In this document: piece by piece, positions 4,696-15,387 of the stretch
Layout of the letters: every line of letters begins with the position of its first letter
How positions within the stretch are numbered: position 1 is the stretch's first letter
From: Gammaproteobacteria bacterium
GTDB lineage: Bacteria; Pseudomonadota; Gammaproteobacteria; Eutrophobiales; Eutrophobiaceae
DNA: 64,000 nt
NCBI GenBank assembly: GCA_965116495.1
Contig: OZ220696.1
Span: 4,256,001-4,320,000, forward strand
Direction of reading: 5' to 3'
Position numbers and translations under genes: made by a program
Notes under the pieces: model-generated
Told to the model about the DNA's origin: nothing
Databases searched by the model: none
What the model saw: only the letters and a program-made list of their open reading frames with translations

Positions 4696-5400
4696 TTAAA
4701 CAATGAATCGGACTAACCCATCCCAGGATGTTCTGTAAACAGGACGCTCGCGCGGATCAATCAAACCAACTTCTTCCAGCCGCCAATTCCCGCGTCCGTA
4801 GTTACAGGGGGCGCAAGTAATTACGATGTTATCCGGCACGGATTCTCCTCCCCAGCAATGCGGCAGGATGTGGTCAAACTGGAGCCACAGACATTGGAGT
4901 GCCGCATGTTGGTCGAGGTTCTTTTGGCTACGCCAATATGCAGAATCTGGATATGCTGTCGTTATTGCTTTACGGATTTCGAAAGGAATTACCGGGATTC
5001 CACAAAAGCGGCAGTTGTAACCATCACGAGCAATGATTTCAAGCCGTTGTTTTTTTGTTGGCATCCGGTCATAGACTTTTGGTTCAGGTTTACCTATGCC
5101 TTGAATTTCCCTCCAGCGGTGGTAACGCCATTGTTCCGGATTTTCCCGTTTACCACCCCAGAGTGATTCAGTCCAAGCCCGAATTTCAGGAATATCAGCC
5201 TCATGGAAAAGTTGTTCTGCAGTTTCCCGATCTTGACGAAGATGTGCGTCTACTGCCAGGTCCAGGAGTTCCGCTGCATGGAATATCTCATCTATAGGTT
5301 CTCGCATACAGCGACGAGGCGCCAGAAACTCTTCCAATAAAGCTTTTTCGCAAGAACCATCAGTGTAAGTCAAACTATGCAACATCGTCTTGTACCCCAA
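4696..5400 (-). CDS. HNH endonuclease
   Basis: RDGYNCRFCG, FDHILPHCWGG and NIVITCAPCNYGR (zinc-bound HNH). Start uncertain. Confidence 0.85.
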   Translation of the reverse strand: MGYKTMLHSLTYTDGSCEKALLEEFLAPRRCMREPIDEIFHAAELLDLAVDAHLRQDRETAEQLFHEADIPEIRAWTESLWGGKRENPEQWRYHRWREIQGIGKPEPKVYDRMPTKKQRLEIIARDGYNCRFCGIPVIPFEIRKAITTAYPDSAYWRSQKNLDQHAALQCLWLQFDHILPHCWGGESVPDNIVITCAPCNYGRGNWRLEEVGLIDPRERPVYRTSWDGLVRFIV

Positions 5401-5619
5401 TATTATTTGTCTTTCACCTCGGATAGTAACCTGTCAATAAGTCCGGATCTAATACCTGGCTTGCGACGTTCGGCAAGAGTCTTATCGAAAAAGTCAAAAG
5501 TGAATTTTGAAGCTATCCTGAACCTGCTTAGTCATACATTTCGGTTATACTAAACCATCAACCGATAACTTGGCTCTGCCCTTACAAAATGAAATTTCTT
5601 CTTTGCATGAGGTTTAGGC

Positions 5620-6546
5620 ATGAAATCTGACGTAGCCGACACCCTGATGCGCGTCGCAGCTTTTGGGCACGTGCTAAAGCTGAGCGAAACACAAAATAAT
5701 ATTTCAGCAGAGGAGTTGAGGAGCGGGTTTACTTTTGAAGGTGAGCGCATCCCATTGGTCAACCCGCAAAGAGGTATTTTCAAGCCAAAACAAATGCAAT
5801 ATTTGCTTTCGATCAGGACGGTGTTTCCTCGTCCTGGCAAGCGTGTCTGGTACGATGATCAACGACAGGTACATAGCCAGATATTCGAAAGCCGCGAAGC
5901 CGTCGATTATGCCTTCATGGGGAAAAATCCGGATGCCGCCGACAATCGTTGGCTCCGTGAAGCCTTCGAAAACCGGGTCCCGGTGATCTATTTCCTTGGC
6001 GTCGCACCAGGGCTTTATCAGGCGATAATACCCACATATATCTCTGGTTGGGATGCAAATGCGCTGAAAGCACGGATCGTTTTCGGAATTCCGCATCAAG
6101 CTGACTATGTTGCACCAGAAAGTGTCAGCGAACGCCGTTATGCGCTGCAGACAGTCAAACAACGCCTCCATCAAGCGTCTTTTCGTGAGGCTGTTATTAC
6201 AGCTTATAACGGACGTTGTGCCCTGTCTGGATTTCCGGAGCAGAGATTGCTTGATGCGGCGCACATTATTTCCGACAAAGATGAACAGTTAGGCCAGCCG
6301 GTTGTGCCAAACGGATTGCCGCTTTCAAAAATACATCATGCGGCGTTCGATGCTCACTTTATTGGTATTGATCCTGATTATCGACTGCATGTATCGGAAC
6401 GTCTTCTCCAATTACATGACGGTCCGATGCTTGATGCGTTAAAACAACTAGACGGTGGAATGCTCCACCTTCCGGCGCGGGCGAAGGACTATCCGGACCC
6501 GGACCGGCTATCGCTACGTTACGAGCAATTTAGGGTTGCTGCTTAG
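5620..6546 (+). CDS. Predicted restriction endonuclease: SRA-like N-terminus plus HNH_2
   Basis: C-terminal RLHQASFR...YNGRCALSG..LLDAAHI...NGLPLSKIHHAAFD; N-terminal GIFKP..LSIRT..YDD..DNRWLREA..VIYF. Confidence 0.8.
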   Translation: MKSDVADTLMRVAAFGHVLKLSETQNNISAEELRSGFTFEGERIPLVNPQRGIFKPKQMQYLLSIRTVFPRPGKRVWYDDQRQVHSQIFESREAVDYAFMGKNPDAADNRWLREAFENRVPVIYFLGVAPGLYQAIIPTYISGWDANALKARIVFGIPHQADYVAPESVSERRYALQTVKQRLHQASFREAVITAYNGRCALSGFPEQRLLDAAHIISDKDEQLGQPVVPNGLPLSKIHHAAFDAHFIGIDPDYRLHVSERLLQLHDGPMLDALKQLDGGMLHLPARAKDYPDPDRLSLRYEQFRVAA

Positions 6547-6584
6547 ATTAGTTACATTTCAAAAAGATCACGAAAGTTGTTTCC

Positions 6585-7427
6585 ATGAAAGAACTAAGAA
6601 AATTGAACTTTAATAAACTGATTTCTGTCGGCGTGCCTGATGTTGCGACCTATTCCTACGATGAATATAAAACTAATGGGTATAAGCACAAACCTATAAA
6701 CGGGTATTGTGTTTCGTGCGAAGAAAAAGGATGCAGCAGTTCAACGGACGATGATTCATATAAGCTTACCAACATATCTCACGGCGCACATTCCAGTGAT
6801 TTCTTCCGAGCATATAAGATAAAACAGGATGCCTCAGATTGGCATCATGAACCGATCATGTTTGTGTATGAATCACCGAGCCGGAATTACGATATTTACA
6901 AAGAAGAACGTTATAACGGATATGACAAGCAACCTTCAAAAACTTGGTATTGGATCCATAGCGATTGGGATAGTCCTATTGCGTATCCTAAAGGATTTAA
7001 GGGTGGCGTATATGACGAATTTGTTTGGTGTGCTACATTGACCTTTAAACTTGCAAATGTTTACGTGACAAACTTGGTTAAATGCGGATTAAATAACGTA
7101 GAAGGAAATTTTAAAGGTCTAGCATCATTTAAGAATGAAACCGTTGAAAACTGCTATACGAATTTCTTGAGTGAGGAGATCTCTATCATCAAGCCAACAA
7201 TTATTTTTGCTGTAGGATCCAACATCGAGCGGTGGGTTAATCATTTCGTCAAAGATAAATATTTTGTGCAGCAACTACCGCATCCTGCTGGGAGGCGAAG
7301 AGGCTTCAGGGATGATCATTACAGAGCTATCTACTTCTGGGGTGTGGTAAGGGCACTTCACAAAGCTGAGATCATCAACACCGATGAAGGTTGTGAATTG
7401 GCAAGGCTATATTTGGATAAATATTAA
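6585..7427 (+). CDS. Divergent uracil-DNA-glycosylase superfamily protein
   Basis: MFVYESPS, YVTNLVKC, NC..FLSEEISIIKPTIIFAVG and LPHPA; N-terminal CxxC. Confidence 0.7.
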   Translation: MKELRKLNFNKLISVGVPDVATYSYDEYKTNGYKHKPINGYCVSCEEKGCSSSTDDDSYKLTNISHGAHSSDFFRAYKIKQDASDWHHEPIMFVYESPSRNYDIYKEERYNGYDKQPSKTWYWIHSDWDSPIAYPKGFKGGVYDEFVWCATLTFKLANVYVTNLVKCGLNNVEGNFKGLASFKNETVENCYTNFLSEEISIIKPTIIFAVGSNIERWVNHFVKDKYFVQQLPHPAGRRRGFRDDHYRAIYFWGVVRALHKAEIINTDEGCELARLYLDKY

Positions 7428-7753: not shown

Positions 7754-8746
7754 ATGGATGCAATAAAAGCACTAGGATTAAGCCAGCCGGATGATTGGAT
7801 TCTAAAACCCGATCAACATGCAGACTTCCTCCCTGATGAAGCGGCACAACTTGTAGCCATTCTACGTAGTAGCAAAATAAATACTATCATCACAAAATAT
7901 AAAGATGCTGATGAAAAAGCTATACACGCACAAAAAAAATATAAGTTATTTAGCAAATTTGGAATTTCATCCGCTTCCGCCGCTGCATTACTTGGAGCAG
8001 TCCTGTTATTTTTAAAATCCTCTTCGGACCCAGGAACTTTTCTTTACAATGTTGGTGAAAATTATGAAAGGCTCATTCTGAGTGCTGAAGCCATAGCTAT
8101 TGCATTGACGGCTTCATTTAGCTACTTACTCAAGCATGATAAATATTTTATCAAATGGATGAATCAACGTGCGAAAGCGGAGACTGAACGGATACGACTC
8201 TTTGAAACTGTATGCTTTCATAAATGTCCGGATCTCAATAAGAATAATTGTATTGAACTTTACCAATTACAACTTGAATACTTTCGAAGATATCAACTTG
8301 AAGTGCAACTGAGTTATTATAAGGGAAGAAGTGAACAGCATGAGAAAGCTGCGAGTAAATTGATTTCTGTTGGTGGAGGTATTACTTTTTTTATTGTATT
8401 AGCAACTGCAATGACCGGCGTATTTGATAATGGTGAAATTATCGCAGCATTAGCTCTTATGGGGATTGCTGCACCGGTAATTTTATCAGCACACGGTAAT
8501 TTGAAACTCATCAGTCAGGATGAACGTAATTCAATAAGATATACGAATACATATGATCGCTTGTTAGAGTTGGAAGGAAATCTTTCTGATGTCAGGAATA
8601 AAATTTCTAACGGCGACCAAGATGAATTAATAAACTTTGTTAACCTGGTTAACAATGAAATTTCTGTTGAACATCGAGAATGGATTAGAATTCAAGACTC
8701 CGCTGAAAGACCAAACTACAAGCACTCGGATTACATGGAAGAATGA
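7754..8746 (+). CDS. SLATT/DUF4231-like membrane protein with two 2TM modules
   Basis: Two hydrophobic hairpins followed by KWMNQRAKAE, QLSYY and V..EISVEHREW, which resemble SLATT motifs. Confidence 0.65.
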   Translation: MDAIKALGLSQPDDWILKPDQHADFLPDEAAQLVAILRSSKINTIITKYKDADEKAIHAQKKYKLFSKFGISSASAAALLGAVLLFLKSSSDPGTFLYNVGENYERLILSAEAIAIALTASFSYLLKHDKYFIKWMNQRAKAETERIRLFETVCFHKCPDLNKNNCIELYQLQLEYFRRYQLEVQLSYYKGRSEQHEKAASKLISVGGGITFFIVLATAMTGVFDNGEIIAALALMGIAAPVILSAHGNLKLISQDERNSIRYTNTYDRLLELEGNLSDVRNKISNGDQDELINFVNLVNNEISVEHREWIRIQDSAERPNYKHSDYMEE

Positions 8747-8802: not shown

Positions 8803-9270
8803 CTAAGTAATTTCACGTGCAAGATTTGACCACGTTACGACTTTTATATTATTAGCCCTTATCCAACGTGGCATTTTATTTGGCTTTCCATCCTTCGTAT
8901 GCGTAGCAATTACAGTTTTTCCCAGTGAGAGACTCTTCTCTACTTCCCATTTCACCCATTCACTGTTATCAGTATATTTTGAAATATGGACGACACAGTA
9001 TGAACTACGTTCTATGCGTTCAGTAATCTTCTGCTTAATATAATCAGCCCGTACGCTATTAAACGGGGCACGTACAGAGTGATCATTAAATTCGATATCA
9101 CTATTATCGTTTTTGGCATTGGCACGCAATAAGTTGACTTCATCCATGTCTTCGGCCGCGAAACTTATGAATACATTACGTTTCCCCCCCTTTAGCGCTT
9201 CCTTTGCCTTTTCTTCAAGGCCGCGAATGTTTCCCAAGGTATTCCACCCTCCGCCGCTACCGCCGCCCAC
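8803..9270 (-). CDS. ThsB-like TIR domain protein (DUF1863/MTH538) with Gly-rich N-terminus
   Basis: RNVFISF..ED and SEWVKWEVEKS (catalytic Glu position). GTG start with GAGGAG RBS at 9278-9283; overlaps the queC stop. Confidence 0.85.
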   Translation of the reverse strand: MGGGSGGGWNTLGNIRGLEEKAKEALKGGKRNVFISFAAEDMDEVNLLRANAKNDNSDIEFNDHSVRAPFNSVRADYIKQKITERIERSSYCVVHISKYTDNSEWVKWEVEKSLSLGKTVIATHTKDGKPNKMPRWIRANNIKVVTWSNLAREIT

Positions 9271-9862
9271 TTACCGTCTCCTCAAACTTGAACTCGTTGC
9301 ACGCTATGCATGCTCCACAAGGTTCTTCCCCACCAGCATGGCATGAGTAAGTGTCTCGAATTCCTTTTTTTTTCGCCATTTCAACAATCTCCACCTTGTG
9401 AAATTTTGAGAGTGGTGCCAAGACTAGTATTTGGCGGCCCATACATGTTGCAATCATTTGCTCCGCATTATGTAAAAAGGTGGTTGTTTGGTCAGGAAAG
9501 AGACTGGTATCTTCATGCAAAAGTCCGATTGAGACAGCATCAGCTTTTACTTGATATGCGTACGCTGAGGCTATAAGCAAAAATAACATGTTGCGACCTG
9601 GGGTGAATGCATCCTCAAGCACATGCATGTTTCGATCCGTCAACCCTGAACGAATGAGAGTTCCGTATCCTTCAAGATTAGCGACTTCAGGTTGTGGTAG
9701 ATTCAGATGTGACATGGCTCTTTTGCAAGCCGCCAATTCAAAGTCGCGTGAGCGCTGACCATAGTCAATAAATAGAGGGAACTGTTGTACGCCTTCTTCA
9801 TGCGCCAATTGTGCTAGCAACGTAGAGTCCAGACCGCCTGATACGAGTGTTACCATGCTCAT
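9257..9862 (-). CDS. queC: QueC-family (7-cyano-7-deazaguanine synthase-like; Cap9-like)
   Basis: SGGLDS PP-loop, DYGQR, PGRNMLFL, and Zn motif YSCH..CGACIAC. Confidence 0.9.
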   Translation of the reverse strand: MSMVTLVSGGLDSTLLAQLAHEEGVQQFPLFIDYGQRSRDFELAACKRAMSHLNLPQPEVANLEGYGTLIRSGLTDRNMHVLEDAFTPGRNMLFLLIASAYAYQVKADAVSIGLLHEDTSLFPDQTTTFLHNAEQMIATCMGRQILVLAPLSKFHKVEIVEMAKKKGIRDTYSCHAGGEEPCGACIACNEFKFEETVSGRR

Positions 9863-9864
9863 AC

Positions 9865-10569
9865 TTACACCATTGCATATCCAGAACTTCGTGCAACGCG
9901 CATTACTATCCAGATTGCCCAGTCTAGGAGGCCAACTTTGACATCCATTTCTAGAGCATGCCTCACTAAGTTTTTTTCCTGCCTCTGATAGTTCGCGAGA
10001 TGAGAGATTGAACCTACTTTTTTAGAATAATAGCCTAAAGCGGTCATATAGTCGATCACATGTCGGTCGATGATTGCAAGATCATAGCTAAGGCAAATAT
10101 TTCTTAAGAACATGCTCGCCTGTTTGGGCCCTATCCCAGGCGTATTTCGGACAAGCCAAGAACGGGTATCGGAGGGTGTTTGAAAGGATGCAAGAAGGCA
10201 TTCAAGACTATCTGACGCTTGTGTAATTACCTGCCTAGTTGCGGCAAGTTGGTTTGCCCGGATTCTCGGGTAACGGTAAGCTCGTTGCCGGTTTTCGACA
10301 TTAAGCCGTTGAATAAGTAGATTATTAAGTTCCATAGCCAGAACACTTTCTGATATGTGCTCATCCAACAAAAGGCTACTCGTGTCGATCGCATCTGCTG
10401 CAGCGACTGCCAGTGGGTAAGGAACTTGGCTGCTAAGCAAACAACAAGAAAGCTCATACCAAAGGCAACGTTCGTCAAGTGTTGGTTTTCGAGAGGCGAC
10501 ACGATTTTCAATATCAGGATAGATGGTTGAAACTGCTTCCGAAAGCCTGTATGGCTCAATGCGAATCAT
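9865..10569 (-). CDS. 8-oxoguanine DNA glycosylase/AP-lyase-like HhH protein (Cap11-like)
   Basis: ELSCCLLSSQ, YRYP..RA, PGIGPKQASMFLRN, LAIIDRHV and LDWAIW. Confidence 0.8.
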   Translation of the reverse strand: MIRIEPYRLSEAVSTIYPDIENRVASRKPTLDERCLWYELSCCLLSSQVPYPLAVAAADAIDTSSLLLDEHISESVLAMELNNLLIQRLNVENRQRAYRYPRIRANQLAATRQVITQASDSLECLLASFQTPSDTRSWLVRNTPGIGPKQASMFLRNICLSYDLAIIDRHVIDYMTALGYYSKKVGSISHLANYQRQEKNLVRHALEMDVKVGLLDWAIWIVMRVARSSGYAMV

Positions 10570-12047
10570 TTGAAGATTCCCGGTATCTTTTTTTCTAACA
10601 ACTCTACGTTTATTTTGCCTAGCAATTTCGTAACAAATCCCTCTAACCGTTCCTCGACTGTAGCCAACTGTAGTTTTGCAGAAAAATTAGCATAATAATC
10701 AAGATTGTGAAGAGAAACTTTTCCAGAAATTCCAATTTCAGCGTCATCTATTGCTGCCTGTGTTACCGAAGAGTCAGCTAATCGGGCTTGGAATTCGAAG
10801 AAATCGAAATGTTGAGTGTGATGAAGTGTTCCCCTCTCTGTGTCAACGGCGTATCGGCACCATTCGAGACCATCAAAGCTATCCGCACCAGCTGCAGTGT
10901 ATACTACAATACTCCAAGGATTTCCCGTACCTAGAAGATGTATCGGTTGATAGAATGGCAACTTGGCCAATTCCTCCCGAATTTTCCTTACTGTACGTGC
11001 ACCTTCGATAAGTCCAGGTCCAAGTTCACGCTCAGGGACAGCAATTAGAGGTGGGTGTAGGTTCTCGGAAATTTCACGAATAATTGTTGGTAAATGTTCA
11101 AGGTCGTGCCCACCCGGTTGAAGTTGTGGTGCATGCACGATAGGGATAATAGGCGCATCGGTTAGTTTCTGATCCTGTCTGATCCCGCCAAGTATTGCTG
11201 AGACTGAAGTTTTAGGTTTCCGTTGTCGAGAGGAAGGATTTATGGGTGGGGCTGGATAGTCAAATGAAAGAACCCAATCGTGCGGCGTTTGACTGAGCGC
11301 TTGCTTTAGATCATCTCGGCTCCAAGTTTTGTTTTCCAGTCTTGTAGCCTCATAGTTGCCAGAGTCGACCATCACAAAACCACCATTTTTACGAAAACGT
11401 GCGAGTGCATTTCTCAGTTGAGTTAACTCCTTCAGTTTTTTTGCACTGGGATAATGTTGCTCAACTAGGTCATAAGCTGAGACTAGAATGGTTGGACCTC
11501 CGCGTAAATTTGTTGAATCGAACGCACCAATTCCGAATACCGAAAGGACTTTTACCGCCTCGAGTGGTTCAAGTCGTGTTTCATATGAAGATGCCGAGTG
11601 GAATAGAGAGGGGAGTTTTATTTGCAGATTTGCAATTTCCTCGGGGCGTTTGGGGGGAAATCTGGGCGAAACAATGGTGGCCAATTTTCTTTGTAATTGT
11701 TTCAAGCCTTCATGATCGCGTTCACCTTTCCAGCATTGCATATCGACTGTGCTCCAAACGGTGTACCCGTAAGGTGCTTTACAGTCCTCAATTGTTGCTG
11801 GAACCAAAGTGATGTTGTTATCTTTAGAGATTTCAAGCTCATTTATCACATTGTCGCTACAGCGTGCCGCCGAAGACCAAATAGGAACCACACATTTCGC
11901 TTTCTGCAATTCTTTCTCGATTTCTATATTGAATTTTCCCGTGACGGTATCGTCCCACCAGACATCCCAGCTTTCTGACAAGATTTCAAAAAGTTGCTTC
12001 GCTTTATCACGGTCGGTGCTTGAATAAATTATGCAAATATCGGCCAA
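10566..12047 (-). CDS. Fusion of N-terminal TIR domain and C-terminal tRNA-guanine-transglycosylase-like barrel (Cap10-like)
   Basis: aa 1-130 TIR: IIYSSTD, VWWD, VVPIWS, SDNVINEL. C-terminal part: MVDSGNYE, IHLLGTG, AGADSFDG, LHNL. TTG start; ATGA overlap with the next gene. Confidence 0.8.
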   Translation of the reverse strand: MADICIIYSSTDRDKAKQLFEILSESWDVWWDDTVTGKFNIEIEKELQKAKCVVPIWSSAARCSDNVINELEISKDNNITLVPATIEDCKAPYGYTVWSTVDMQCWKGERDHEGLKQLQRKLATIVSPRFPPKRPEEIANLQIKLPSLFHSASSYETRLEPLEAVKVLSVFGIGAFDSTNLRGGPTILVSAYDLVEQHYPSAKKLKELTQLRNALARFRKNGGFVMVDSGNYEATRLENKTWSRDDLKQALSQTPHDWVLSFDYPAPPINPSSRQRKPKTSVSAILGGIRQDQKLTDAPIIPIVHAPQLQPGGHDLEHLPTIIREISENLHPPLIAVPERELGPGLIEGARTVRKIREELAKLPFYQPIHLLGTGNPWSIVVYTAAGADSFDGLEWCRYAVDTERGTLHHTQHFDFFEFQARLADSSVTQAAIDDAEIGISGKVSLHNLDYYANFSAKLQLATVEERLEGFVTKLLGKINVELLEKKIPGIFK

Positions 12048-12122
12048 AATATCTTAATCCCAAAGCAGGCGGCTAACGCTCGGAGCAGTATTTGATATAG
12101 CTATTGTAAATTGCATCTTATG

Positions 12123-13205
12123 CTAGTGTGCTGTCCCAGAAATAACTGTGCATAGTCTTTCAACCTTGTTCAAGATAGACTCAGCCGTCGCCGTCCAAAC
12201 GAATGGGCGAGTATTCGCATTATAGTTGTCCACAAACTGCTTGATCTTGTTGACGAGTTGTTTTACTGAGGTAAAGGAGCCCCGCCGGATGGCCGTTTGG
12301 GTGATGAGACCAAACCAGCGTTCCACCTGATTGAGCCATGAGGCATAGGTGGGGGTGTAGTGCACATGGTAACGGGGTCGTTTTGCCAGCCAGGCCTTCA
12401 CCTTGGCATGTTTGTGGGTGACGTAATTATCGACGATCAGATGCACGTCCAGGTCGGCGGGCACGTTCCGGTCGATGTGTCGCAGGAAGGCCAGGAATTC
12501 CTGATGCCGGTGGCGGCGTGTACAGCGGCTGAGCACGGTGCCGGTGGCCACGTCCAGGGCGGCAAACAAGGTGGTGGTGCCGTGCCGGATATAGTCATGC
12601 GTCACCCCCTCGACATAGCCCAGTCCCAGGGGCAACAGCGGCTGTGTGCGTTCCAGGGCCTGGATTTGGGTCTTCTCATCGACACACAGGACCACGGCAT
12701 GGTCGGGCGGGTTCAGGTATAAACCGACGATATCGCGCACCTTCTCGATGAAGAACGGGTCGGTGGATAGTTTGAAGGTGCGTTGTCGTTGGGGCTGTAT
12801 TCCGAACAGGGTGAACCAGCGCTGTACGGTGCTTTTTGAGACGCCGGTGTGCTCGGCCAGGGTGCGTAGCGTCCAGTGGGTCCCGTCGGACGGGGTGGAT
12901 TGCAAGGCGGTATTGATGACCTCGGCCACCCGTTCGTCGTCGTGGCTGCGCGGGCGCCCGGCACGCAGTTCGTCGTGCAAGCCTTCAAGGCCGTGCTCGA
13001 CGTAGCGTTTGCGCCATTTGGCCACGGTATTCTTATTCAAACGCAGCCGTGCGGCGATGGCGCTGCCGGGCTCACCCTCGGCACAGGCGAGGACAATCTG
13101 GGCGCGTTGGACCAGGCCATGTGGCAAGGAACGTGACTGTGCGAGGCTGAGTAACTGACTTTTTTCATCCTGGTTGAGTACAATGGGGGTAGCACGACGA
13201 GGCAT
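12123..13205 (-). CDS. IS630 transposase
   Basis: HTH region, VDEKTQIQAL, HDYIRHGTTTLFAAL, DNYVTHK, HYTPTYASWLNQVERWF. ORF appears intact; start between 13205 and 13232. Confidence 0.95.
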   Translation of the reverse strand: MPRRATPIVLNQDEKSQLLSLAQSRSLPHGLVQRAQIVLACAEGEPGSAIAARLRLNKNTVAKWRKRYVEHGLEGLHDELRAGRPRSHDDERVAEVINTALQSTPSDGTHWTLRTLAEHTGVSKSTVQRWFTLFGIQPQRQRTFKLSTDPFFIEKVRDIVGLYLNPPDHAVVLCVDEKTQIQALERTQPLLPLGLGYVEGVTHDYIRHGTTTLFAALDVATGTVLSRCTRRHRHQEFLAFLRHIDRNVPADLDVHLIVDNYVTHKHAKVKAWLAKRPRYHVHYTPTYASWLNQVERWFGLITQTAIRRGSFTSVKQLVNKIKQFVDNYNANTRPFVWTATAESILNKVERLCTVISGTAH

Positions 13206-13269
13206 GAGCATTTCTCCGGGTAATGGGTTCATGCCTATTATACCTCTTATTTATGGGACAGTACACTAG
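12123..13269 (-). mobile_element. IS630-family insertion sequence
   Basis: Ends CTAGTGTGCTGTCCCAGAAATAA (12123-12145) and TTATTTATGGGACAGTACACTAG (13247-13269) match as inverted repeats at 21/23 positions. TA duplication at a CTAG site; more GC-rich than its flanks. Confidence 0.93.
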
Positions 13270-14444
13270 GTGGATTCAGGGGAATCCTTCGGTATCGCCG
13301 CCCAAAAAGCGAAGTACAGAGCAGAAACAAAGTCATCAGTGATTGTGAAGTTTGGTCCAGCCAAGGCCGTGAACACAGGGTCAACCTTTTCCTCAGCCAG
13401 AACAACAACAGATAATCCCTCGTTATGCGCACGTTGGCCTTTGGCCAAGAGATTTGGTGTCAATACGGTGGCAATAATCAGGACTGTGGTCGGTTCTTGA
13501 AGAATGGCATCTCGATCTATACCATTGAGTTCATAACAGATAACCGTTGCTCCAAGTTCGCATAAACGAAACCGGGCTTCTTCCAAAACATACCGACCAC
13601 CGATTGTGTTAACCTCACCCTCAAGTGAAATTGGGCCAGGTTGAGAGGTGCCGATTGCTACAAGGTCAGACATTGATCCTGAAGGTACGGGGAGTTGGCG
13701 AGTGCTGCAGTACCTTGCAACCGAACGAGACGCAAGATCAGCCGCATAGTATGCAGACATTTTTGCTTCTGCCCAATAAAAGGTGAATATAGCGCTAAAG
13801 ACGTCTCCACTCCCTATTTTAAAGACACTGCTCGAACGATACGCTGGAATGTGGCTCTCCTCTACACCGGGCTCAAATACTATAGCGCCTTGGGCACCTG
13901 CCTTAACAATGATTACCGAAACATTTTGTTCCTGCATAATGCGTTTGGCAGCCAATTTAAGATCATCCTCCCCCGTAATTAATCTAAGCTCAAGCACATT
14001 GAGAACAATAGCAAGCTCTTCGGCGTAAGAACCATTTTCACCGAATGTCTTAGGGGATAAAGCTGTCTGGGGGTCATAGACAGCCCGTTTTGCTTTGACA
14101 ATTGCATCACCTTCCAAAAAACCAAAGCATAACACTGTATCTCCAGAGACTTGGAGTGGCGGCTGCCGCTCGATTTGGTCATAAGAGGGTTCGATGTGGG
14201 GTTGCGATAGAGGATGAAAGTAGGAGAATGCGATTCGGACATTCGAGGGTTGTCCCCGCAATGTTATACCAAGACTTTCAAGGAGTCCGATTCCAGGACT
14301 ATTTCTATCACTTACATATGTGTGAAGCACACTTCCGGGGGATAAATTGCTAACAGCTGCTGCTGCCCGACCGCCAGACCCAAATTCTGCATCCCATTCT
14401 GGAATCATACAAATTTCGTGATATAAACCACCTACAATCTGCAT
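13266..14444 (-). CDS. PfkB/ribokinase-family kinase with C-terminal nucleoside-deoxyribosyltransferase-like domain
   Basis: FGSGGRAAAA, VYDPQ, IVKAGAQGA and KIGSGDVFSA (PfkB anion-hole motif). The C-terminal ~125 aa alpha/beta extension is tentatively NDT-like and degenerate. Confidence 0.75.
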   Translation of the reverse strand: MQIVGGLYHEICMIPEWDAEFGSGGRAAAAVSNLSPGSVLHTYVSDRNSPGIGLLESLGITLRGQPSNVRIAFSYFHPLSQPHIEPSYDQIERQPPLQVSGDTVLCFGFLEGDAIVKAKRAVYDPQTALSPKTFGENGSYAEELAIVLNVLELRLITGEDDLKLAAKRIMQEQNVSVIIVKAGAQGAIVFEPGVEESHIPAYRSSSVFKIGSGDVFSAIFTFYWAEAKMSAYYAADLASRSVARYCSTRQLPVPSGSMSDLVAIGTSQPGPISLEGEVNTIGGRYVLEEARFRLCELGATVICYELNGIDRDAILQEPTTVLIIATVLTPNLLAKGQRAHNEGLSVVVLAEEKVDPVFTALAGPNFTITDDFVSALYFAFWAAIPKDSPEST

Positions 14445-14607: not shown

Positions 14608-15387
14608 TCATAGATCATGCCAACTGGCGTCCATTATATCCCCGTTATCATCAAAACTAATGATCACCCTCTTTACAATATTGAGTTCATGATTAAGTTG
14701 ATTGGGGCGGCCGTATTTTAAGTGTGACTTGAGGCTACCCTCGACCTTCTCGTTAATTAGGGTATCAGTGACTTTGATGTCATAATCATCGAACCATCCA
14801 TAACAGTTTGTAGAAACAGATATCATTTTGTTGGTATATTCCTTCTTAGGCGGGAATAAGTTCATGAGGCTCGTATTTAGCTCGACAACTTCGAATTGGA
14901 TTGGAAACGTAGCTTTGTTGTGAAGTAGGAACCCTAAACTTATGGTGTTCACAGCACCATCTTCTGTTAATGTCCTGTTTATTCTCATGTTATTAAACAC
15001 TAGCTTGCCTTCCACACTGTTTCGATAGCGCCATTCATCGAACCGCAACAGGCCGGTGGGAATGGCTACAAACAACACCCCTACGCCCACGATTAAATGG
15101 AACCAAGGAGTGCCTTGAAGCCAGCCTAGTACGCCAATCACGATGATGATTGCAATAGGTAATATTTTGTATCGCCATTCGTCAATTCGTGATAGACCAG
15201 TGGAAACGGCTACAAACAACAGCACTACACCGACGCCCAGATAGAACAAGGGAATGTCTTCAAGCCAACCCATTACACTAGCCCCGATGGAGAGCGCTAA
15301 GGGTATTACATGTTTTGTCACGGCTTCCTCAGCGAATAGGTTAGCTATCCACTTACTGAATTCTGATGACTTGTGCCTAAAATTCAT
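14608..15387 (-). CDS. Hypothetical membrane protein with internal 48-aa repeat
   Basis: N-terminal hydrophobic segments GWL...DEWRY occur twice, followed by a soluble beta-rich C-terminus. Confidence 0.65.
   Translation of the reverse strand: MNFRHKSSEFSKWIANLFAEEAVTKHVIPLALSIGASVMGWLEDIPLFYLGVGVVLLFVAVSTGLSRIDEWRYKILPIAIIIVIGVLGWLQGTPWFHLIVGVGVLFVAIPTGLLRFDEWRYRNSVEGKLVFNNMRINRTLTEDGAVNTISLGFLLHNKATFPIQFEVVELNTSLMNLFPPKKEYTNKMISVSTNCYGWFDDYDIKVTDTLINEKVEGSLKSHLKYGRPNQLNHELNIVKRVIISFDDNGDIMDASWHDL

Follow-up and report, generated by a model that had tools for sequence, protein, structure and literature searches.

The locus analyzed here raises the question of why a small TIR-domain protein, encoded directly behind a QueC-family enzyme, begins with a run of glycines, and whether that tail is the acceptor of a 7-deazaguanine group. 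So far, CdnD is the one substrate for which protein deazaguanylation is firmly documented. In the CBASS precedent, according to the accessible text of the preprint (bioRxiv 10.1101/2025.04.06.647259), the initiator Met is removed, 7-carboxy-7-deazaguanine (CDG) is adenylated and joined by an amide bond to Gly2, and the tagged tail is handed over to Cap10. The preliminary description of this locus proposed an equivalent reaction for the TIR and took the modification as established for the QueC-family defence enzymes Cap9 and QatC. This is firm for Cap9 acting on CdnD but less so for QatC, for which the accessible text of one paper reports a low-level NDG peptide with no intact-mass shift and a reaction that could not be reconstituted.

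Operon layout and setting

The window, that is, the whole stretch of 64,000 nt that was analyzed, covers positions 4,256,001–4,320,000 of contig OZ220696.1 (GCA_965116495.1, Gammaproteobacteria, Eutrophobiaceae). On its minus strand, the gene order is pfkB, IS630, TIR-cap10, cap11, cap9 and the tailed TIR, followed by a convergent SLATT gene:

7754–8746, plus (convergent): double-SLATT membrane protein, 330 aa (Pfam and NCBIfam SLATT_1; two SLATT repeats)
8803–9270, minus: ThsB-type TIR, 155 aa (Pfam PF08937, ThsB_TIR, E 2e-20)
9283–9241, minus: ribosome-binding site GAGGAG (9283–9278), 7-nt spacer, GTG start (9270–9268) and tail codons to 9241
9257–9862, minus: Cap9-like QueC-family adenylating enzyme, 201 aa (Pfam QueC, E 5.5e-40; PADLOC QueC, E 1.9e-28)
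9865–10569, minus: Cap11-like Ogg-HhH glycosylase/lyase, 234 aa (Pfam PF22175, E 2e-23; NF002305)
10566–12047, minus: TIR-Cap10 fusion, 493 aa, with an N-terminal TIR (E70) and a TGT-like barrel (Pfam TIR_2, TGT)
12123–13265, minus: IS630-family element (Pfam DDE_3/HTH), at the pfkB stop, breaking no ORF
13266–14444, minus: PfkB/ribokinase-family kinase, 392 aa (Pfam PfkB; GxGD intact)

The IS630 element is present as a single copy in the genome, and an IS-free allele, on a contig of 99% identity that stems from a separate study, joins position 12122 directly to 13266. Promoter and terminator scans stayed at chance level (13 vs. 14.4 and 7 vs. 7.6, respectively). Adjoining the SLATT gene, positions 4696–7427 contain a pair of genes for HNH nucleases together with one of the UDG superfamily, which probably belong to the same defence island; a UDG-like gene also lies next to the SLATT gene in a related contig. 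Upstream of pfkB, a 259-aa protein (14608–15387, minus), in which a hydrophobic segment occurs twice (…RIDEWRY… / …RFDEWRY…), has no match in Pfam, PADLOC or NCBIfam. A second TIR defence locus of the same genome (L128:6285-10663; G000:C1 ~3,102,300-3,106,700) is found near queA-tgt and comprises a TIR, a transposase-split SIR2-like gene, identified by motif reading, and a tail-less ThsB. In the congener G408, the module recurs in divergent form (L131:5600-11916), with the tail MGGGTGSR and an IS within TIR-cap10; a tail-less TIR and a SLATT-like gene come after it, amid many IS elements.

The small TIR and its glycine tail

Downstream of the ribosome-binding site, the GTG is followed by the codons GGC GGC GGT AGC GGC GGA GGG TGG AAT (GGGSGGGWN; 9241–9283, minus strand, with the leader), a base-for-base match to the signal, spacing and tail first described. 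An in-frame TAA immediately 5′ of the GTG leaves no possible start further upstream. Within the ORF, a tail-less start is conceivable at codon 12, where a TTG follows GGAGGG, but just 10 of the 65 homologs scored share the TTG. The GTG is peculiar to the window’s lineage (89/89 homologs start with ATG). The start overlaps the queC ORF (9257–9862), as noted at the outset, and does so by 14 nt; a 14-nt overlap occurs in 4 of 85 TIR/queC junctions and a gap of 0–2 nt in 59, and the overlap was rejected as a conserved feature and is regarded as incidental.

The glycine-rich start is more than chance. In the 4.34-Mb genome, no start codon but that of the small TIR leads into GG[GS]4 with 100 aa or more still to come. 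All four Gly codons are in use at positions 2 and 3 among the 89 homologs, so conservation acts on the protein sequence. The protein is built of a disordered tail, a conserved helix (L18, A22, K23, L26) and a TIR core, in which the glutamate of the W-x-x-W-E motif (E109) is invariant across 68 sequences. The AF2 model of the Met-less protein agrees with the predicted order of tail, short helix and TIR: residues 1–12 are disordered (pLDDT <50), residues 13–26 form a helix and the TIR α/β fold follows. The closest PDB sequence is BcTir (8FZ9, E 5e-20). The Met-less protein has a calculated mass of 17,336 Da, and its tryptic peptide GGGSGGGWNTLGNIR one of 1401.68 Da.

Conservation of the tail and linkage to QueC

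Related loci were gathered from genomes, plasmids, viral contigs and metagenome contigs through TIR-core or helix patterns, leaving the tail unused. This yielded 93 loci, with the metagenome scan represented by the best 80 of at least 108 matches; two were dropped, one with its N-terminus cut off (L007) and one a distant tail-less TIR without QueC (L008), leaving 91. The tail is found in 89 of the 91, the other two being truncated at contig ends, and Gly2 is invariant among the 89 (87 MGG, 2 MGS). QueC lies upstream in 83/83 tailed loci with at least 200 nt of upstream sequence; the tailed loci include near-duplicates, and the counts do not represent independent events. Other TIR matches within the related loci are all tail-less (0/28). 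Viral contigs contributed one locus, and a search of 350 genomes from a single alphaproteobacterial family added none. Among the best 120 listed of the 600 protein homologs found, the window’s own protein included, 115 start with Met-Gly and 54 match the strict CBASS motif. This motif, M(G/S)G(G/S)GG, is satisfied by 48/89 tailed homologs, and the window’s tail, MGGGSG, deviates from it at position 5.

As a control, 30 ThsB loci were chosen by Pfam score from 401 genomes. Two are tailed, both abutting QueC and OGG, 27 have neither within 1.5 kb, and one was left uncalled (Fisher p 0.002 for the tail–QueC association, uncorrected for kinship). Whether the Gly tail occurs only in TIRs beside queC had been put forward as a check; the tail proved conserved in the queC-linked homologs and was present in none of the unlinked ThsB TIRs examined.

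A deep search recovered close relatives both with and without the tail, which identifies tail and helix as a separable addition and makes the earlier picture of a portable graft plausible. A quick tree of 103 TIR cores left 55 of 100 branches open, with a tail label that missed variants such as MGGA and MGGK, and is too weak to fix the number of tail origins. Two close TIR-core relatives (P0136, P0137) are tail-less and fused behind another domain, one of them as a TIR-TIR fusion. A second, divergent group of Gly-tailed TIRs (P0201, P0202, P0209, P0215, P0216, P0240, P0253, P0262) is separated from the first by tail-less relatives.

Helper proteins resembling Cap9, Cap10 and Cap11

Aligned with Cap9 (9NTO), the QueC-like protein places S8, D12 and S13 at S18, D22 and S23, R90 at R86, and F122/D124 at Y115/D117. 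The SGGxDS and RN motifs, an aromatic-x-Asp base site and four Zn cysteines are present, and the His of the canonical YxQxHxxE motif is absent. At the base site, Phe replaces Tyr115 of Cap9 and Gln replaces the Cys after the base-reading Asp (FPDQ in 72/76 homologs). Each of the canonical QueC motifs YxQxHxxE, YPDC and Cx8CxxCxxC is found in 0/76 Cap9-like homologs, and the protein falls below the TIGR00364 cut-off (130.3 vs. 150.3 bits). By sequence score, it is closer to canonical QueC (2PG3, E 1e-16) than to Cap9 (9NTO, E 2e-12). A search for type IV CBASS Cap9 in the 401 genomes that also served for the ThsB control (E ≤ 1e-22) returned just this module (2 matches) and two canonical QueCs.

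The TGT domain of the fusion has Cap10 (9NTN) as its top PDB match (E 7e-19 with a profile). Residues D73, S74, D122, H226 and D248 of Cap10 correspond to D228, S229, D263, H370 and D392, which are invariant in 39 sequences. Around K154, alignments disagree and give no clear equivalent; an invariant His, H305, is nearby in TIR-Cap10. By these alignments, the tag-binding residues of Cap9 and Cap10 appear largely kept. The glutamate of the fused TIR, E70, is at least 90% conserved among the fusions. The module exists in two subtypes, with Cap10 fused to a TIR in 48 loci and standing alone in 11, 8 of these directly behind a SLATT gene.

The PfkB protein is predicted with high confidence (AF2 pLDDT 91), and a fold match (Z 25) over residues 1–263 covers a full ribokinase fold. 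It is followed by an uncharacterised C-terminal α/β domain of ~120 aa that has no nucleoside-deoxyribosyltransferase match in Pfam. Among loci with sufficient flank, pfkB is linked to the module in 29/43 of the fused type vs. 0/8 of the stand-alone-Cap10 type.

Effectors and the predicted signal

The SLATT gene lies 56 nt from the stop of the small TIR, and its two repeats match the SLATT clusters of related modules; its product is likely a ThsH-like effector, judging from sequence. A TPR-S/MAP3K_TRAF_bd gene accompanies 29 of the 43 well-flanked modules and a SLATT gene 22; at least one of the two is present in 39, rising to 41 if other TPR-S fusions (trypsin, α/β hydrolase) are added; these counts come from profiles built from the same loci, without a background set. 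The TPR-S/MAP3K_TRAF_bd genes of relatives, candidates for a type VIII effector with a putative N-terminal hydrolase, have PDB matches to MAP3K5 alone.

SLATT and CMP-hydrolase-TPR effectors (ThsH and ThsI) define Thoeris types VII and VIII, and canonical cADPR activates both. Because the SLATT and TPR-S neighbours resemble these effectors, and because the closest solved TIR is BcTir, canonical cADPR seems, on balance, the better guess for the module’s signal. This guess is weakened by the missing background control and by BcTir itself, which comes from a TIR/TPR pair and was reported to be devoid of NADase activity (bioRxiv 10.1101/2023.05.26.542521). The small TIR is predicted to belong to an anti-phage signalling system.

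Supply of the 7-deazaguanine substrate

In the host genome, a single contig that is 99.5% complete, neither QueD nor QueE nor canonical QueC is present, unfiltered profile searches included, and there is no match to YhhQ; Tgt, QueF and QueA are kept. By the known route, the host therefore makes no CDG. Searches of 11 module-bearing genomes found QueE and canonical QueC missing from the same six, the window’s host included. Completeness is 98–100% for five of the six and unknown for the sixth; in one of them, TIR-cap10 is split by an IS. Tgt is present in 11/11. The PTPS (QueD) search also gave no match in G415, despite the queE-queC present there (L139, G415:C1:255500-263000), which reflects either a divergent QueD or a search miss. 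Absence of QueD from the PTPS search alone is thus weak, and the conclusions rest on QueE and QueC. The module is not confined to CDG-making hosts; in QueE-less ones it may be inert, scavenge the base, use another ligand or rely on phage-made CDG.

A proposed mechanism

We consider it probable that Gly2 of the small TIR is a deazaguanylation acceptor for the QueC-like enzyme, given that the tag-binding residues of Cap9 and Cap10 are largely retained. The initiator Met would be removed, and the helix at residues 14–27 would dock the small TIR on Cap9, which would adenylate CDG and couple it to the amine of Gly2 (+176 Da). Once tagged, the tail would enter the pocket for the base in Cap10's barrel. 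Since this Cap10 is itself fused to a TIR whose glutamate is intact, the tag would tether the small TIR to the Cap10-fused TIR. Upon infection, both TIRs together would produce a signal from NAD, canonical cADPR being the most likely one; this would switch on the membrane effector of the SLATT type, so that infection is aborted. Cap11 would reverse a transfer step.

The acceptor role claimed for the tail in the preliminary description is thus supported by its linkage to QueC, by the Cap9/Cap10/Cap11 set and by the retained residues, but not by the strict CBASS motif, missed at position 5. The explanation is weakened further by a host without QueD, QueE or canonical QueC, by a Cap9-like score nearer canonical QueC, by FPDQ and by the lack of a clear K154 equivalent. 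It also loses strength because the effector gene is convergent and outside the operon, and because an IS lies between pfkB and the other genes.

If true, deazaguanylation would gain a second and simple test system in a TIR of 155 aa, whose output from NAD can be measured, and one conjugation toolkit would serve signalling enzymes of unrelated kinds. The fusion of TIR and Cap10 points to TIR assembly as a concrete role that the tag may have, and the QueE-less hosts raise the question of the base’s origin.

Alternative explanations

A possible reading, compatible with Gly2 as the acceptor and less probable than it, is that the module, by ancestry a deazaguanylation system, is carried in this host and other QueE-less ones as an inert passenger on mobile islands. 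The module genes have a GC content of 43–47% vs. 55% for the genome, the IS630 element sits inside the operon, and both the congener’s TIR-cap10 and the other TIR/SIR2 locus of the genome are interrupted by IS elements. QueE-less hosts are moreover not above background: in the family holding three module hosts, QueE is present in 19/81 genomes, with no enrichment of QueE-lessness, and canonical QueC is present in 2/18 congeners of the window’s host. Against inertness, the five ORFs are intact in the window and, by full-length profile matches, in three other QueE-less genomes (99–100% complete). The 99%-identical allele keeps the tail and its GTG unchanged and, of the 12 substitutions that it shows in TIR and QueC, 9 are synonymous (binomial p 4e-4 vs. 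25%; one depth-3 contig).

It is rather improbable that the tail is the QueC-like enzyme’s substrate for a group that is not CDG-derived, such as another carboxylate or purine derivative, possibly made via PfkB. Such a group would suit the six of 11 hosts that are without QueE and a clade that has FPDQ rather than YxDC, and QatC is likewise suspected of a different substrate. The aromatic-x-Asp pair by which Cap9 recognizes the edge of the guanine is nevertheless retained, as is the Cap10 base pocket. As for PfkB, its gene stands beside 5/6 QueE-less and 2/5 QueE-positive module copies, an association that is not significant (Fisher p 0.08–0.20), and the absence of pfkB from all eight stand-alone-Cap10 loci means that it is no core part of the module.

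Phages encode 7-deazaguanine pathways. A speculative extension of the acceptor reading, to which we give little weight, is that in CDG-less hosts the base would be supplied by the FolE/QueD/QueE of phages that protect their DNA with 7-deazaguanines, or by PfkB-driven salvage of such nucleosides. Tagging would then dock the small TIR on TIR-Cap10 to form an active two-TIR cADPR synthase, and the modification would serve as an infection sensor and not as constitutive priming.

Least of all is it credible that the QueC-like protein is a metabolic preQ0/ADG synthase, the TGT-like protein a dpd-like modifier of DNA or RNA and the Gly tail an unrelated flexible leader: the top sequence matches are canonical QueCs and the host has QueF and Tgt with no other QueC, but neither module nor host has QueD or QueE, the canonical motifs are absent in 76/76 homologs, the protein scores below the TIGR00364 cut-off, the TGT domain matches Cap10 best, and the tail tracks QueC at every checkable locus.

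Comparison with known systems

Type IV CBASS (10.1101/2025.04.06.647259; PDB 9NTO, 9NTN), as far as the accessible text describes it, shares with the module the helpers Cap9, Cap10 and Cap11, a Met-Gly-Gly tail followed by a helix, and the catalytic and base-reading residues. The module differs in having a TIR for the CD-NTase, a TIR-fused Cap10, an added PfkB and FPDQ in Cap9, and the strict tail motif in just 48 of its 89 homologs. Among the 10–11 locus proteins, none matches a CD-NTase in Pfam or PADLOC; the TIR stands in its place.

QatABCD, in the accessible texts (PMC13279940, PMC13376578, PMC13639016), likewise pairs a QueC-family enzyme with a partner whose N-terminal glycine tail is essential. 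QatC, however, is a larger protein whose base site reads Thr-x-Thr, QatB has the motif MGTS, and the system has no TGT or TIR. QueC cluster 4 (PMC13329287) shares a short QueC-like enzyme beside a PfkB protein. Its signature, CHx5CxxCxGCxK, is found in 0/76 Cap9-like homologs, and the cluster is read as purine salvage in the accessible part of that paper, which nowhere uses the word TIR.

With Thoeris types VII and VIII and BcTir/BcTpr, as described in the accessible texts, 39/43 modules have SLATT or TPR-S effectors in common; those systems consist of two genes. The BcTir chain (138 aa) aligns with the small TIR from the first strand onward and is without tail or helix.

Closest are the Thoeris operons with cap9, cap10 and cap11 already reported in a December 2025 preprint (bioRxiv 10.64898/2025.12.03.692087, Fig. 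6G, S10B), which share, in its accessible text, a ThsB TIR with the catalytic Glu, an effector, and cap9, cap10 and cap11. The window operon likewise holds cap9, cap10 and cap11 together with the TIR, and a linked SLATT gene. In that text, AF3 models (ipTM 0.62 for TIR-Cap9 and 0.79 for TIR-Cap10), which are predictions only, show contacts like those of the CD-NTase. The tagged-TIR idea is thus not new, the same prediction being made there, and the surprise is limited accordingly. The main text does not contain the word PfkB, and the accessible text mentions neither a fusion of TIR and Cap10 nor a survey of tails, a predicted signal or the CDG pathway of hosts; the fused form may still appear in its figure or tables. 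Outside subscription journals and bioRxiv supplements, the literature yielded no test of deazaguanylation on a TIR and no description of the form with PfkB and TIR-Cap10. To the operons of the preprint’s accessible text, the window locus adds a subtype with a TIR-Cap10 fusion and PfkB, the SLATT/TPR-S neighbours (39/43 modules) and the QueE-less hosts (6/11).
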